From the NCBI GenBank assembly GCA_048571215.1, contig CP182352.1, forward strand, positions 1,152,001-1,216,000: 64,000 nt of DNA, given 5' to 3'. The first letter of the stretch is position 1; each line of letters starts with the position of its first letter. The position numbers and the translations under genes were made by a program. The DNA is from Halarcobacter sp. GTDB lineage: Bacteria > Campylobacterota > Campylobacteria > Campylobacterales > Arcobacteraceae. This document shows, piece after piece, positions 24,887 to 32,653 of the stretch. Below the pieces are notes generated by a model. That model did not search any database. It had not been told where the DNA came from and worked only from the letters and a program-made list of their open reading frames with translations.

Positions 24887-26812
24887 TTGGGAATGATTTC
24901 AGAATTATTTAAAAAAACAGACATGGATGATGCTATAAAAGTTTTAGAGACTAAGGTCTTTAATGAATCAAAGGCAAATTCTATGTTTAAAAAACTAGAA
25001 GATATAACTATAACAGATAATAAAAATCAAAATCTTATTCATAAAATGGCAGAAAAAAATAAAATCGATGCGATAATTTGGTTAAAAGAAAAAGGTGTTG
25101 ATTTTTCATTAGAGGATAATGAAGGACAAACCCCTTTAATGATTGCTGCTAAAAAAGGTTATATAGAACTAATCAAAATCTTAATAAATTTTGGAGCTGA
25201 TCCAGAATATAGAAATAAAGAGAGAAGAATAGCCTTACAAGAGGCGGCAAAAAGTGCAAATATTGATGCTTATTGTACTTTAAGTAGAATAACACAAAAT
25301 AAAAATAATGTAGATTCTGAAGGGAAAAATGCTTTTTTTGATGCCATAACAAGTATGAGTGAAAATATGATAAAAGAGACTCTTTTAGATGAAAATATAG
25401 ATAAAGAGATTACTGATACTGATGGGAATAGGGCTATTTTTTTAGAACCTTCATATATGAATCCAGAGATTACGACATTACTTATAAAATATGGAATAGA
25501 TTTAACCCATAAAGATTTTGATGGTAGAACAATACTTTTTTATATTTTAGACAATCCAAAAGAAAAAATAGATATTTTTAAAAAGATTGTTATACGATAT
25601 GAGGGGATTTTAAATCAAACAGATATCCATGGTGACTCTTTGTTACATTATGCTGTTAAAAATTTATTAGAAAAACAGACTATAAATCCACAAGACCCTG
25701 TTTGTCAATTAATCAAAATTATGTTTGATTATGAAATAGAATCTACAATTATAAATACAGAAGGTTATAGTGCCTTTGAATTAGCATTAGAATCAGAACG
25801 TGTTGAAATAATAGAACTATTTTTGAAAAATTTTTATGATCCAAATATTGTAAATAAAGATGGGGAAACTCCACTTAGTTTGATGGCATTAAAAGGGAAA
25901 AAATATAAAGATATAATCACTTTACTTTTATCTTATGGAGCAAATCCAAATATTAAGAACAAAGATGGTGAGACAGTTATAGAAAAGTTAATTAGTATAG
26001 AACTATATTTTTCTGATAATAAAAAAATATCTTCAAAATTAAGACAAATAATTCCAGAAAAAAATGAAGGTTATCTTTCTATCATTGAACAAATAATCTA
26101 TAATTCGGAAGCAAATCTACGTCAATTAAATTCAAAAGGTGAACCATATTTTTTTGATGCGGTACTCCATGGAAATATGGAGATTGTAAAAATACTTACC
26201 TATTTTGGTGCAGATATAAATCAAGTTGGTGCAACGGGATTAAATATAATATATGTCTTGATGGAAAAATATAAGGATGTTACAATTAAAAACAATGTTT
26301 TAAAGTTTCATGATACTCTTAGAAATATTATTTTTTTAGGTGCCAATGTTAATGCAAGAGATAATTATGGAGGTATTACCTTACATAAGGCTATTTTAGA
26401 CCATGACATAAGTATTGTGAAAATACTTTTATCTTCAGGAGCTGATATTAGAGCTATTGATAATAGAGGTAGAAATATGATTCATAATTGTATCTGGAAG
26501 GCAAAAGTTAAGACTCTTAGATTTATATACTCACAAAATAATAAACTTTTAAATCTAGAAGATAAGTTTGGAGTTTTACCTATACATTATGCTGCTTTTT
26601 TAGGTTATACTGATTTGGTTTTAGAGTTAATAAATTTAGGCTCTCATGTTAGTTCTTATACTGTAAAAACAGAGTATATTAAACGATTTTTATTAAGATT
26701 TAACAAAAACATATCTTCTTTAGAAGAAAATGCCAAAAATATTGCAGAGAAGAATAAAATTGCAACTTTGGTTGGTAATATGAAAGAGGAGTTTTCTTTA
26801 GAGAATATATAA
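24887..26812 (+). CDS. Ankyrin-repeat protein
   Basis: Many G-TPL/LH-A...GA(D/N) repeats (GQTPLMIAA, GETPLS, GITLHKAI, LPIHYAA). Confidence 0.88.
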   Translation: MGMISELFKKTDMDDAIKVLETKVFNESKANSMFKKLEDITITDNKNQNLIHKMAEKNKIDAIIWLKEKGVDFSLEDNEGQTPLMIAAKKGYIELIKILINFGADPEYRNKERRIALQEAAKSANIDAYCTLSRITQNKNNVDSEGKNAFFDAITSMSENMIKETLLDENIDKEITDTDGNRAIFLEPSYMNPEITTLLIKYGIDLTHKDFDGRTILFYILDNPKEKIDIFKKIVIRYEGILNQTDIHGDSLLHYAVKNLLEKQTINPQDPVCQLIKIMFDYEIESTIINTEGYSAFELALESERVEIIELFLKNFYDPNIVNKDGETPLSLMALKGKKYKDIITLLLSYGANPNIKNKDGETVIEKLISIELYFSDNKKISSKLRQIIPEKNEGYLSIIEQIIYNSEANLRQLNSKGEPYFFDAVLHGNMEIVKILTYFGADINQVGATGLNIIYVLMEKYKDVTIKNNVLKFHDTLRNIIFLGANVNARDNYGGITLHKAILDHDISIVKILLSSGADIRAIDNRGRNMIHNCIWKAKVKTLRFIYSQNNKLLNLEDKFGVLPIHYAAFLGYTDLVLELINLGSHVSSYTVKTEYIKRFLLRFNKNISSLEENAKNIAEKNKIATLVGNMKEEFSLENI

Positions 26813-26829: not shown

Positions 26830-27369
26830 ATGTACAATTTTGTTCAACAAAATTTAGGATTTTTAATGAAAATAATTAATATATTACCTCTTACTCTTTT
26901 TATCTCTTTATTTTTTACTGCTTGTTCTGAAAAAACAAATGCGATGAGATATTTTAATGATAGCACAAGACAGAGTATAAACTCTATTCAGTTTACTCAA
27001 AAAGTTGACCTTCTTTTAAATAATCAAAATGAAGTAACAATAATAGCTTCCTATTTAAATGAAATTGATAAAGAGTTTAAGAGTGATAATTATGATACTT
27101 TTTTAGTAGCTATTCAAATATTTAATAATGTAAATCTTTTTAAAGATAGATTTAAGATTTTATTAGATGGTAAAAGACCAGTATCTTATGAAAAGATTGA
27201 TAATAGTAGTGATCTAATAAAAAAGATATCATTAAAAAATCATTGGGCAAAGTATTATTTAGTAAAATTTAAAAAAGAAGTTAAAAAGAATAATATTTTA
27301 AATTTGACAATATCTCATAGTAGACTTGGAGAAACAACTATAGCATTTGGAAAAGAGAAGAGGCTTTAA
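26830..27369 (+). CDS. Putative lipoprotein
   Basis: Signal peptide ending in the lipobox FTAC; the start is probably ATG 26866. Confidence 0.7.
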   Translation: MYNFVQQNLGFLMKIINILPLTLFISLFFTACSEKTNAMRYFNDSTRQSINSIQFTQKVDLLLNNQNEVTIIASYLNEIDKEFKSDNYDTFLVAIQIFNNVNLFKDRFKILLDGKRPVSYEKIDNSSDLIKKISLKNHWAKYYLVKFKKEVKKNNILNLTISHSRLGETTIAFGKEKRL

Positions 27370-28732
27370 TTTTCTCTTTATCCTCTTGTAAACTATTATA
27401 GTATAAATAGTAGTTTACAAAATACTTATCAAAATCCTCAAACAAAAAAGATAAAAATTCAAATTTTATTATCTTGTCTAAATTCTCATCAAAATCTTGT
27501 GGTGATTTATTGTAATTATATTTGATAAAGGTATTAAAAGGGTTTATTTTTTCTTGTTTTAAACTATCTAAATAACTTAAAAAATACTCTATATTTGTTT
27601 GAGCTTCAAACTGTTTTATTAAAGATTGAGATTTATTTAAATATTTCTCAATCTTTTTTATATTATTTAGACTCAATTGTGTTAAACCTAGTCTAAAATC
27701 ACTTGAGATTTTATCCTCACTGAAATCTGAATTTACTTTTATAGTAGAGTAAAGTAGGGCTTTGTTTTCCTTTGATAAGTTTTCATATTTATCTATATAC
27801 TCTAAGGTATTTAATGTTGGTTGGATAATACTATTTTCTAAAATTTCATTGGCATAAAATGAGTATATATTTAGTTTTTGCATAGAAGTTATATTTTCTA
27901 AAATAGAACTGTCTTTAGTGATAAAATATTTAAAAAATTCAAGTTTCTCTTTATAAAGATAAGCGTAATTTGCTTCTAAATTTTCTAAAAGTTCATAAGC
28001 TTTATTTAAATCATTTTTTTTAATATTGTATAAACATAATAAAAATTTAGTATTTGCATCTAACTCTTCTAAGTTAATATCCTCAAGGTGTTGTTGTAAA
28101 TTTGTAAGTTTTTCATCAGTAATAATTGTTTGAATAAGTTTATTATACATAGCTTTATTAGATTTTATTCTATTTAGAGTTTTTGAGGGGATTTTATAAT
28201 TAAAATAATCTCTTCTAAATTCTGTTGTAACATTAAAAAAAATATCATAAAAGGTATCCACATCACTTATTATAAGTTTTGTAAAAGGGATTGCAGATGA
28301 TAAAATCTTAACTTTTTTTATAAGCTTTGGATATCTATTATCTAAATTTTGTAGTACTAGTTTCAAATCATAAGTAGAGAGTGTTGATATCTCTTTTATA
28401 TCTAAACCTACTGCGATGCAGTCAGCATAAGAGTAAACCAATTCTTTTGTTGGAGCTTCTAGACACTGTGAAACTGCTAGTGTTTCATCATTTTTAAACT
28501 TTTTTGCAAAGTTATGAAATAGGGGCATATTCATATTATCTATAAGTGAAAGTGTTTCAAAAGCTTGCTTTGGTGTAGTATAATCAAGTTTTAAAAACTC
28601 ATTAATATAAAAGTCTCTTTTTAAGCCCTTTGGTAAGTTTTTTATTTGTTCAAAAATTAAAGTTTTTTCTTCTAAAATTTCAGCTTTTAAAAAGCATGAA
28701 AAGGTTAATAAAAATAGAAGAAAAAACCTCAT
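27338..28732 (-). CDS. Soluble lytic transglycosylase-like exported protein, catalytic motifs degenerate
   Basis: Signal peptide; PKGLKRDFYI N-terminus; ALLYSTIKVNSDF...LGLTQ echoes SLT motifs I and II; lies directly downstream of yggT. Confidence 0.6.
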   Translation of the reverse strand: MRFFLLFLLTFSCFLKAEILEEKTLIFEQIKNLPKGLKRDFYINEFLKLDYTTPKQAFETLSLIDNMNMPLFHNFAKKFKNDETLAVSQCLEAPTKELVYSYADCIAVGLDIKEISTLSTYDLKLVLQNLDNRYPKLIKKVKILSSAIPFTKLIISDVDTFYDIFFNVTTEFRRDYFNYKIPSKTLNRIKSNKAMYNKLIQTIITDEKLTNLQQHLEDINLEELDANTKFLLCLYNIKKNDLNKAYELLENLEANYAYLYKEKLEFFKYFITKDSSILENITSMQKLNIYSFYANEILENSIIQPTLNTLEYIDKYENLSKENKALLYSTIKVNSDFSEDKISSDFRLGLTQLSLNNIKKIEKYLNKSQSLIKQFEAQTNIEYFLSYLDSLKQEKINPFNTFIKYNYNKSPQDFDENLDKIIKFEFLSFLFEDFDKYFVNYYLYYNSLQEDKEKIKASSLFQML

Positions 28733-28733
28733 A

Positions 28734-29012
28734 TTACATACTCATAAATAGTTTCCCTAAAAATGTTTCTAGGAAAATTAGTGCAAAAATAATAATTATT
28801 GGAGCAAAATCCATTCCCCCAATAACTGTAGGTATAAATCTTCTAACTAGGGCATAAGCAGGCTCAGTTAGTCTATATAACATCTGTACAATAGGGTTAT
28901 AAGGATCTGGTCTAACCCAAGATAGAATTGCAGAAATAATAATAACCCACTTGTATAAAAATATAATACCTAATATAACAGTAAATAATGAACTTAACAA
29001 TGCATCAATCAT
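28734..29012 (-). CDS. yggT: YggT family membrane protein
   Basis: [27 protein letters not shown]. Confidence 0.93.
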
Positions 29013-30274
29013 TTTATAATCTCTCCTAAATAGTTTTTAATATATGGATAAATATCAGAAATATTTGCTCCATTATTACGACCTGTTAAAATATATTTTA
29101 GTGGTTCCAATAGTTTTTCTCCACTTAATGCAGTTTTTTGAGAAATATATTTTTCAAGTTCGTCAAAATCGTTAAAAAATGGCGCATCTTGCATACAAAG
29201 TTTTAACTCCACAAACTCATCTTCAAATCCGATACAAGTAGATTTAGGAGAAAAAATTAAGTCTATTTTCTCTTTTATCTCTTTTATTGTACTAGCTTCT
29301 TGTAAAAAAAGTTTTCCAAGTTTTCCTATATCAGCATCTGCAAAACCTAAGATTTTTGATAATCTCATCTCATCAATTGTTTCAAGATGTTTTTTATTTA
29401 TAAATTTTAGTTTTTCAATATCAAATTTTGTAGCTTCTTTTGAGATGTTTTTTATATCAAACCATTCTATAGCTTCTTCCAAAGAGAAAATTTCATTTGG
29501 AGTTTTATTTCCTAAGAGAACTAAATAGTTTGCAATGGCACTTGGTAAAAAACCCTCATCTATAAGTGATTTAACTGAGATTTTATCTGAAATAGTTGGT
29601 AAATGAATATAATTAATTTTTTTATCATATCCTAAAAGCTTTCTAAGATATATCTGTTTTGCAGTATTTGCTATATTCTTTTCATCTTTTATAACAATTG
29701 AGATATCGTATAACATATCATCAACTCCACAAGCATAATTATATGTAGGAGTTTTATCATGATTTAATATGATAAATGAGTCTATATCTAAAGGTGTATA
29801 TTCAAAATCTCTATTTAATAAATCAGTAAACTTTATATTTTCATTAGCTTTTGTAACTCTTACTGTAAATGGTGAATTTACATTTAAAACTGTTTCATCT
29901 GAAAGTTTTTCACAAAAACCATCATATACAAAAGGTTTTCCCTCTTTTTTTGCTTCTTCTTTTAGTTCATCTAGTTTCTCATCACTACAAAAACATGCAA
30001 AGGCTTTTTTCTTTGCCATAAGTTGCATCGCAAGTTTTTGGTGGTATTTTAGATTTTCACTTTGATAAGCAACTTGTTCAAAGTCAATAGAAAAAAGATT
30101 TAATAAATCTAAAATCTCTTTATCTTTCCCCTCAATATTTTTTTCTTTTTGTGTATCTTTTACTCGAATAAGCAGTTTTTCGTTTTTTTGTTTAGATATA
30201 ATATGATTAAATACTGCTTTTCTTAGATCTTCTATGTGCATATCAGCAGTTGGACTTAAGGCAAATCTTAACAA
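29009..30274 (-). CDS. gltX2: Glutamate--tRNA ligase 2 paralog with degenerate catalytic motifs
   Basis: [34 protein letters not shown], anticodon domain. HIGH motif altered and KMSKR absent. Confidence 0.85.
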
Positions 30275-30275
30275 T

Positions 30276-31571
30276 TTATTTCCTTACTATAGAATATGAT
30301 AAATTTATAATCTCTTTATGAGATTCAATATAATTATTTAAATCTTCTAATTTAAGATTTTCTATATTTTCTAACTCTTTTTGAGTGTAATCTTGCTCTA
30401 ATCCCTTATAAAATAGAGTAAAAGCTTGATTTAATCTTTGATTTAAAGTTTCAGTTCTAAGTGGTTCACTACCTAGTAGGAAATCTCTTGCAGAATCTAG
30501 CTCTTCTTGTGTAACCCCTTTTTTTACAAATTTATTTACTATTTTACTAACTAATTCTTTTGCTTCATCTGCACTTTCTAATTTAGTTTGTAAGTAACCT
30601 GTAAAATAAGAGTATGATTTATTTATAGAGATATATCCATAGGCTGAATATGCTAAACCTCTTTTTACTCTAATCTCTTCCATAAGTCTTGAACCAAAAC
30701 CACTTCCACCTAAAATAAAAGAAGCAACTTTAGCTTTATATACATTTTCATCTTTAGGGTTTATCTTAAATGGGCTACCAAAATAGACATATGCTTGCTG
30801 TGTATCTTTTAAAATAGTATCAACTGTAGCTGAGTCGTTTGCTGTATACTTTTCAAATGAATTAGCACCCTTAGCCTTAATCACTTTTACAACTTTTTTG
30901 ATTTTTTTGATTAACTCATCATAATCAAAATCTCCACCTGCTACAATGATTAGATTATTTAAATCAATCGCTTTAGAGATAAACTTTTTTACATCTTCTA
31001 ACTTTATAGAAGAGATTGATTCAATTGTTCCTGAACTTGGATTTTCCAAAGGGGTACCTTTGAAAAGTATTTTTTTTAGATTATTACTTGCCATATAGTC
31101 ATAATCATTCTCTTTTCTTTTTAAAGAACCAATACTAATAGTTTTGACTTTTTCTAAAGTTTGCTTATCATAATTTGGGTCTTCTAATAACTCTTTTAAA
31201 AATTTTAAAGCCTCTTCATGTACATCTTTTAAAGATGAAAGTTCAATTACAAAGGTTTCAAAACCATTTGAGGTATGTAATGAAATCGCTTTATTTTCTA
31301 ATTTTGCAGCAAATTTTGTTGAACCTAGTTTTTTAGTCCCTTCATTTAAAAGTTTTGCTGATATTGAAGCAAGTCCACTTGTTTTTTTATCTTTCATATA
31401 ACCTGAGTTTTTAAATACCAATTGAAGGTTTAATATTGGTAAACTTTTGTCCTCTTCAAAAACTACAGGTATTTTTAAATTATCTATCTCTACATACTTT
31501 ATAGTTGCAGCCATTAAAAATCCTTGTAAAATTAGTGTTAATATAATATATTTTAATAATGATACTTTCAT
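30276..31571 (-). CDS. M16 (pitrilysin-family) peptidase-like protein, non-catalytic type
   Basis: [22 protein letters not shown]; no HXXEH motif. Confidence 0.88.
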
Positions 31572-31579
31572 TATAAAGT

Positions 31580-32653
31580 TTAAAACCTTTCTAAAGTTTC
31601 ATAGGCAGTATTACGTTTTGCAGGATTCTCACCAACATCACGAATTAGTTGAATCATCTCATCTTGGTTCATGCAGTTTGAAGCACCTGCTGCTGCAACT
31701 ACATTTTCTTCCATCATGGTACTACCTAAATCATTTGCACCAAATTTTAGTGCCATTTGACCTATATAACTACCTTGGGTTACCCAAGAACTTTGGATAT
31801 TTTTAAAATTATCTAAATACAATCTTGAAACAGCAAGAAGTCTTAAGTATCTATTTGATGATTGAGGTTTTAAATCAGGTATCTCTTCTTTAAGTTTTGT
31901 ATTAGCACTTTGAAAAGACCACATAATAAATGCTCTAAAACCACCAGTTTCATCTTGTAGTTTTCTAATTCTTTCCCAGTGTTCAATTATCTCTTCATTT
32001 GTTTCAACTGTACCAAACATCATTGTAGCTGTTGTTTTCATCCCAATAGAGTGAGCTAATCTATGAATCTCAATCCATTCATCTGCATCCATTTTTTTAG
32101 GAGCTATGATATCTCTAACCCTATCACTTAAAATCTCTGCACCAGCACCAGGAATTGAACTTAATCCCTTAGCTTGCAATCTTTTTAATACTTCTAGTTT
32201 TGAGATTTTTGATACCTTTGCAATATAAGATATCTCAATTGCAGAAAAAGAGTGTAGGGTGATTTGAGGAAATTTTGTATGGATATGTTCAACTAAATCC
32301 TCATAATACTCAATTTTTAGTTTTGGATGAACTCCACCTTGCATTAAAATTTGTGTACCACCAATAGCTAATAACTCTTCTATTTTTTCATCTATCTCAT
32401 CATAAGATAAAACATAAGAATCTTCATCTCTTCCATGTCTATAAAAGGCACAAAACTTACAATCAACCCAACAAACATTTGTATAGTTAATATTTCTATC
32501 AACTACAAAACTTGTTATCTTTTCTGGGTGTAGTTTAGCTTTTACTTTTGAAGCTAATGCTCCTAACTCTATTAATGAGGCATTTTCTATTAAATCTAAA
32601 GCCTCTTGGTTTGTTAATCTTTTATCTATTATAGTTTCCATTTTTTTTACCAT
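31580..32653 (-). CDS. mqnC: Cyclic dehypoxanthine futalosine synthase (radical SAM)
   Basis: DRNINYTNVCWVDCKFCAF, PGAGAEIL, QSSWVTQG, MMEENVV. Confidence 0.93.
   Translation of the reverse strand: MVKKMETIIDKRLTNQEALDLIENASLIELGALASKVKAKLHPEKITSFVVDRNINYTNVCWVDCKFCAFYRHGRDEDSYVLSYDEIDEKIEELLAIGGTQILMQGGVHPKLKIEYYEDLVEHIHTKFPQITLHSFSAIEISYIAKVSKISKLEVLKRLQAKGLSSIPGAGAEILSDRVRDIIAPKKMDADEWIEIHRLAHSIGMKTTATMMFGTVETNEEIIEHWERIRKLQDETGGFRAFIMWSFQSANTKLKEEIPDLKPQSSNRYLRLLAVSRLYLDNFKNIQSSWVTQGSYIGQMALKFGANDLGSTMMEENVVAAAGASNCMNQDEMIQLIRDVGENPAKRNTAYETLERF

Follow-up and report, generated by a model that had tools for sequence, protein, structure and literature searches.

In epsilonproteobacteria such as Helicobacter pylori, GluRS2 is a tRNA(Gln)-specific, misacylating synthetase that makes Glu-tRNA(Gln) for GatCAB. 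A synthetase fold can also serve without aminoacylation: HisZ, an ancient class II protein with a known partner, is a protein-binding subunit. Among full-length GluRS paralogs, the second GluRS of Thermotoga maritima charges neither tRNA and is a duplicate beside a non-discriminating GluRS1, as stated in the accessible text of PMC3927822. The same text notes that six epsilonproteobacteria have both GluRS2 and GlnRS, and suggests that GlnRS is non-functional there; in the available part of its alignment supplement the code for S. deleyianum matches once, to GluRS1, and its GluRS2 may have been left unaligned. In the literature searched, with most subscription papers outside reach, no description of a degenerate GluRS2 was found for these organisms.

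The window analyzed here is a stretch of 64,000 nucleotides from Halarcobacter sp. (contig CP182352.1). It encodes a protein that shares with epsilonproteobacterial GluRS2 its sequence ancestry, the gltX2-yggT-slt gene order, the fold and the zinc site; however, differently from the H. pylori enzyme, it has lost the ATP, glutamate and tRNA contacts and is found alongside an intact GlnRS. The gene and its neighbors are the following.

29009..30274, minus strand: gltX2 (GluRS2) ortholog with degenerate active site and whole GluRS fold, 421 aa, TTG start
28734..29012, minus strand: yggT, Pfam YGGT, with a 4-bp overlap with the gltX2 stop
29021..29029, minus strand: last gltX2 codons (TTAGGAGAG), also the yggT ribosome site, from the codon bias at Gly429
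27338..28732, minus strand: slt-like lytic transglycosylase gene, weak Pfam SLT match (E 1e-4)
30276..31571, minus strand: M16 peptidase-like gene, directly upstream of gltX2
31580..32653, minus strand: mqnC, dehypoxanthine futalosine cyclase

The open frame of the original prediction is borne out by translation, with an AAGGA ribosome site at 30281-30285, and its assignment as a full-length GluRS2 paralog is confirmed by descent, by tree placement and by the gltX2-yggT-slt order, which matches the C. jejuni operon Cj0845c-0844c-0843c in the part of PMC4647113 available. The protein is 68% identical to an intact family ortholog (G010, 433 aa) and about 30% identical to GluRS1, and on the GluRS2 tree its gene is nested among intact copies. 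It matches Pfam tRNA-synt_1c and reaches 311.7 bits with the NCBIfam gltX model, whose cut-off is 289.95; thus automatic annotation would label it as a working GluRS, an annotation error in which a dead-looking protein clears the standard cut-off. A model predicted from a 53-row alignment has a pLDDT of 93 (34 for the single-sequence fold) and contains the five-domain GluRS fold including the anticodon domain, with TM scores of 0.82-0.86 to the top GluRS structures and a match to whole bacterial GluRS with Z of about 35 over 417 residues. GluQRS (YadB) is likewise paralogous to GluRS and carries a CxC..Y..C zinc site, and a 271-aa trimmed GluRS2 described below is similar to it in size; however, GluQRS keeps a working active site, while the window protein has an anticodon domain and no catalytic motifs, and this identity was rejected on the full-length fold and a score of 124.6 against a cut-off of 276.7. 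One metatranscriptome gave RNA matches, all of them contigs from a near relative that span part of the gene, which is no proof of expression; a promoter and terminator scan gave results no better than chance level.

Decay of the active site was scored at 25 key substrate-binding residues per ortholog, with G010 as intact reference; the roles of these positions, including the glutamate-binding ones, are those we assume from Thermus GluRS structures. The window protein retains 10 of 25, while intact orthologs have 24-25. The changes are located as follows.

30227..30268, minus strand: degenerate RFAPSPTG..HIGN segment (P6L, G10A, G15E, N16D)
30149..30166, minus strand: degenerate RIEDTD (E39K, D42Q; R45K just after)
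29663..29692, minus strand: degenerate IRGEDH.SNT (R196K, G197D, D199K, H200N)
29588..29593, minus strand: junction of a 12-codon in-frame deletion of the KMSKR loop, from the alignment to G010
29066..29157, minus strand: eroded anticodon-contact region (K386E, K398E, F401L, R405K, P415A in G010 numbering)

The motif readings originally given for residues 3-16, 37-42 (RVKDTQ), 195-204 and 224-237 are exact, and so is the in-frame loss of the KMSKR loop, since G010 residues 229-240 with KKMSKR are absent; the protein thus lacks the KMSKS-type loop expected of an active GluRS. The claim that HIGH is destroyed stands in part: the Gly and Asn that follow have changed, but the His is kept, giving HIED. 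This does not fit the H-phi-G-N form that the motif takes in GluRS2 according to the accessible text of PMC3927822. Similarly, zinc site and anticodon fold are retained, as had been proposed, but basic residues of the anticodon region have changed. Presumably these residues contact the anticodon, as in Thermus GluRS-tRNA structures. E39 and R196 of the glutamate-binding set are lost, R3, S7 and Y178 of this set are kept together with H13 and D40, and other tRNA-side changes with respect to G010 are R116V and R171N. The loss of key residues and the KMSKR deletion support the dead-enzyme claim, and the window protein is very probably catalytically dead, as far as sequence can tell.

The genome of the window organism has three PF00749 genes, encoding GlnRS-YqeY (750 aa), GluRS1 (470 aa) and the window GluRS2; glnS does not adjoin gltX2, and gatB is intact. 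A PF00152 search returned two genes, AspRS and one taken as LysRS, and found no AsnRS, so that GatCAB would still be needed. In the alignment GluRS1 retains an Arg at what we take to be the discriminator position; since GlnRS is also present, the suggested takeover by a non-discriminating GluRS1 is not supported here.

Analysis of 151 Arcobacteraceae genomes revealed that this state is common in the family. A gltX2 ortholog is present in 151/151, and no stop was seen in gltX2 among the 150 matches listed. After leaving out genomes G022 and G100, 149 orthologs were extracted, and 6 under 395 aa were dropped; the 143 scored fall into two groups, with 24-25 or 5-20 key residues. The glnS gene is matched in 106/151 genomes, and where it is intact 92/97 orthologs are degenerate, against 3/46 without it; these 3 all belong to genomes 74-91% complete. 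Among genomes at least 95% complete, GluRS2 is degenerate in 74/77 with intact glnS and in 0/35 without, so that the predicted co-occurrence of motif loss with glnS holds. Five family genomes with full-length glnS still hold an intact GluRS2, glnS is partial in G068, and in G028 (15 stops inside the match) and G052 a broken glnS is found beside an intact GluRS2. At the G052 locus (L379) a fragment that looks, by eye, like a transposase interrupts glnS; the G028 locus is L188.

Lineages are damaged differently, down to 5/25 residues in the family, and the surviving set is not a common one. KMSKR-region deletions of 1-12 aa occur in 81/95 degenerate orthologs versus 0/48 intact ones; R45 is kept in 6/95, R116, R171 and R405 are no longer fixed, while R3 and D40 are kept in 94/95. 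If decay is irreversible, the tree requires it to have happened 19 times, and 13 times once weak nodes (under 0.9) are collapsed; these counts would drop if intact copies were re-acquired. Tested on 28 genomes, the rpoB tree is rejected by the GlnRS alignment, with a difference of 387 log units, and for GluRS2 the difference is 71 log units (p-SH 0.06, p-AU 0.01), indicating that glnS moves and gltX2 mostly stays. Co-transfer of the two genes, hinted at in a first test on 22 genomes, was rejected by the 28-genome test with rpoB. As a separate observation, the GluRS1 tree (L272-L300) conflicts with the GluRS2 tree within genus g1, hinting at GluRS1 recombination. GlnRS motifs are intact in 31/31 proteins (the top-scoring matches and that of the window genome), and omega (dN/dS) of GlnRS is 0.046-0.092. 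These data reverse the inference made in the accessible text of PMC3927822: GluRS2, not epsilonproteobacterial GlnRS, looks non-functional. The trigger of decay would be the arrival of glnS, as the correlation suggests.

The same pattern extends beyond the family. In a class sample, 131/141 genomes match intact GluRS2 at 1e-85 and 15/141 have glnS. Other families contributed 62 orthologs, comprising all 46 of the f7 sample and 16 hand-picked ones; of these 62, 34/34 without glnS are intact and 25/28 with glnS are degenerate, and glnS-linked decay is repeated in four other families. The decay of GluRS2 is thus real, family-wide and convergent. The inactive GluRS of T. maritima is a single lineage; conversely, here decay is repeated, tracks the gain of glnS and proceeds under selection. 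Trimmed forms of 313 aa (G221) and 271 aa (G276) have lost patch B (see below), and GluRS2 was not found in the glnS-containing genomes G204, G281 and G266; the last also lacks yggT, so that a gap is possible, while G204 and G281 have a clean gltX2 deletion with yggT-slt still working. Outside the family, gltX2 can be dispensed with, which speaks against a universal need for it. With the 271-aa form as query, which favors degenerate forms, none of the 120 matches listed out of 215, the named ones mostly from Sulfurospirillum, exceeds 21/25 key residues. In 83 Sulfurospirillum-like clusters (375-400 aa, score at most 15) in-frame deletions have removed three substrate-side elements: the helix 99-112, the hairpin 143-161 and the KMSKR loop. 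Stages from intact through trimmed to lost are all found in living genomes, and they constitute a replicated natural experiment in pseudoenzyme birth, with the same trigger and more than a dozen independent starts.

Selection was measured on sister pairs. Omega is 0.077 in 13 degenerate pairs versus 0.026 in 13 intact ones, and GluRS1 in these genomes gives 0.029 and 0.035; key residues are relaxed about 20-fold (0.105 versus 0.005) and tRNA-side residues reach 0.135 versus 0.002. IQ-TREE estimates on four clades each are 0.087-0.164 for degenerate and 0.030-0.054 for intact copies, and family f7 gives about 0.145 versus 0.050-0.062. In segments of 20 codons, from 23 degenerate and 17 intact pairs, omega rises 2-3 fold across most of the degenerate protein, with a relaxation of 3- to 100-fold in segments 1-20, 161-200, 221-300 and 401-420, while 61-80 and 121-140 are tighter than in intact copies. 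The 23 degenerate pairs contain 0 stops, where a rough neutral count expects about 460. The frame is therefore under purifying selection (omega about 0.08-0.16), without the stops, frameshifts or omega near 1 of a pseudogene, and with catalytic residues lost from a fold under purifying selection gltX2 shows the pattern expected of a pseudoenzyme. The original alternative of a simple early decay in one genome is not supported: the state is family-wide and old enough for those expected stops. The most constrained elements are listed here.

29912..29995, minus strand: complete zinc site, C94-x-C96-x20-Y117-x3-C121, read in the sequence
29987..30073, minus strand: patch A1, residues 68-96, the helix before the zinc knuckle and CFC, with omega at or below that of intact copies
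29858..29920, minus strand: patch A2, residues 119-139, from omega of segment 121-140
29303..29374, minus strand: patch B, residues 301-324 (313-336 in G010), first anticodon-domain helices

The zinc motif is of a type described in the available part of PMC4381286, and its four ligands are kept in 95/95 degenerate orthologs of the family and in 25/25 from other families; in a few Sulfurospirillum forms Cys replaces the Tyr. Segment 121-140 has an omega of 0.018 in degenerate versus 0.059 in intact copies, and part of patch A2 is probably a helix cap, from the alignment to 2cfo. In the 83 Sulfurospirillum-like clusters most positions of the runs 68-96 and 314-336, and almost all of those in patch A1, show at least 90% invariance. 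The patches were initially chosen by eye from the degenerate set, and the same regions are conserved in f7, a family outside that choice; patch B is variable in families f2, f3 and f5. Silent-site variation within the patches is normal, which points to selection on the protein. Many of the conserved positions simply belong to the fold core. Pairs linking patches A and B made up 27 of the 200 strongest covarying pairs versus 4.5 expected; this enrichment was set aside as ancestry, because the sites are lineage markers.

The main reading of these data, with a probability of roughly 0.65, is that the degenerate GluRS2 is a pseudo-synthetase whose retention reflects a non-catalytic function, probably the binding of a protein, as its selection pattern suggests. 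GluRS2 is intact where glnS is absent; the GlnRS-YqeY gene spreads horizontally among Campylobacterota, and after its arrival the ATP, glutamate and tRNA contacts would decay independently in many lineages, with GlnRS making Gln-tRNA directly and GatCAB remaining for Asn-tRNA. The open frame, the whole fold, the complete zinc site and two patches are kept, the patches under as much constraint as in active copies. The non-catalytic role may already have been present in the active GluRS2 of these lineages, and the candidate binding surface would comprise the zinc-domain helix and the first anticodon-domain helices, most likely facing another protein. A rough ranking of partners places a protein not yet known first, followed by GatCAB, GluRS2 itself, YggT or GluRS1. 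The accessible parts of two papers propose contact with GatB as the core job of the zinc domain (PMC4381286) and report weak GatCAB binding and self-binding for H. pylori GluRS2 (PMC3241645). However, GatB as the whole story is doubtful, since patch sequences vary in the families with the greatest dependence on the indirect route, and genomes that lost GluRS2 still have GatB; loss of gatB or gain of AsnRS in such genomes was seen in 0/5, and this persistence of GatB without AsnRS indicates that a GatCAB role is not universal. A homodimer prediction scored 0.00 (mark 0.42), with no bearing either way, and no fused GluRS2 of 738-2105 aa was found in the search, a result of little weight. Co-loss of yggT with GluRS2 was rejected, since yggT is still in 6/9 genomes without detected GluRS2. 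The scaffold idea, although unproven, is the best inference; the window protein would resemble HisZ in keeping a synthetase fold without aminoacylation, and would differ from it as a class I protein that arises repeatedly from an active enzyme. The wider proposal, that GluRS2 of free-living Campylobacterota has a second function through a conserved protein-binding surface, exposed at each gain of GlnRS, and that the pseudo-synthetase evolved more than 12 times and is being whittled to a minimal zinc-bearing scaffold, is slightly favored. Such a moonlighting role, if true, would be testable in cultured strains in which the essential catalytic role of GluRS2 no longer interferes.

As the main alternative, a protein without any second function could also show this pattern if operon position, the yggT ribosome site and the need to fold slowed its decay until it was trimmed and lost. 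Since gltX2 lies in an operon and contains the yggT ribosome site, stops and frameshifts would be polar: at nearly all loci that extend downstream, gltX2 is followed by yggT, whose ribosome site occupies gltX2 codons 428-430, and in the C. jejuni operon Cj0845c-0844c-0843c polarity was demonstrated one gene further downstream, in the part of PMC4647113 available. Indeed, Gly429 is GGA or GGG in 92/93 degenerate orthologs with Gly there, while GGT accounts for 486/1324 Gly codons overall; C-terminal conservation is thus due in part to this site, and the tail was discounted as a binding motif. The graded series from 25 to 4 key residues, to forms of 313 and 271-278 aa and to loss, and the TTG start in 84/95 degenerate versus 27/48 intact copies, a difference confounded by ancestry, also suit slow decay. 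Conversely, the clean deletion in G204 and G281 leaves yggT-slt working, yet 0/106 family genomes with glnS took this route; in G012 and G033 the degenerate copy is complete although no yggT comes after it, and folding alone predicts neither a constraint tighter than in the active enzyme nor invariance along consecutive helix positions, which makes slow decay a rather unlikely account of the whole.

A persisting role on tRNA(Gln), as chaperone or as deacylase clearing Glu-tRNA(Gln), appears improbable. The anticodon domain fold and, in 94/95, R3 and D40 are kept, the two genome classes share an identical 5' half of tRNA(Gln) among the sequences listed, with no switch there, and H. pylori GluRS2 cuts the half-life of Glu-tRNA(Gln) by half (PMC3241645, accessible text). 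However, that enzyme deacylates Gln-tRNA(Gln) equally (same text), which would be harmful here; the tRNA-contact residues decay as fast as those for ATP and glutamate, R45 and the other basic residues among them, and several lineages have lost the acceptor-side helix and hairpin through in-frame deletion, which argues against the tRNA-binding role that had been put forward. Still more improbable is a slow but real glutamyl-tRNA synthetase backing up GlnRS: the score above the gltX cut-off and the R3, S7, H13, D40 and Y178 kept in the window copy are compatible with it, but KMSKR is deleted, E39K, R196K, G15E and N16D have occurred, and the residues lost differ between orthologs and leave no shared set intact. 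The pseudo-synthetase with a binding role thus remains the preferred reading.

Minor observations concern single loci. Loci with glnS beside or very near gltX2, in differing orientations, come from genera g12 and g13 and from some f7 and f11 genomes (L115, L116, L126, L130, L134, L143, L146, L147, L160, L162, L164, L166, L167, L176, L193, L198, L206, L215, L224, L227 and L261). At L261:1453-2268 the start of the 271-aa GluRS2, a form without acceptor-side helix, hairpin, KMSKR loop and anticodon domain, overlaps the glnS stop. Loci L264-L268 (G165, G201, G169, G158, G275) belong to Campylobacterota genomes with one full-length GluRS, presumably non-discriminating, in which GluRS2 and glnS were not detected. 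In the window, the transglycosylase motifs of the slt-like gene (27338-28732) look eroded by eye, and a 641-aa ankyrin-repeat-like frame at 24887-26812 scored well under the cut-offs of the two ankyrin effector models that it matched. Outside the window, at G000:C1:1133574-1133649, ARAGORN predicts a tRNA-Glu(ttc) with the anticodon loop ATTTCCT, whose C at position 37 sets it apart from the other tRNA-Glu printed.
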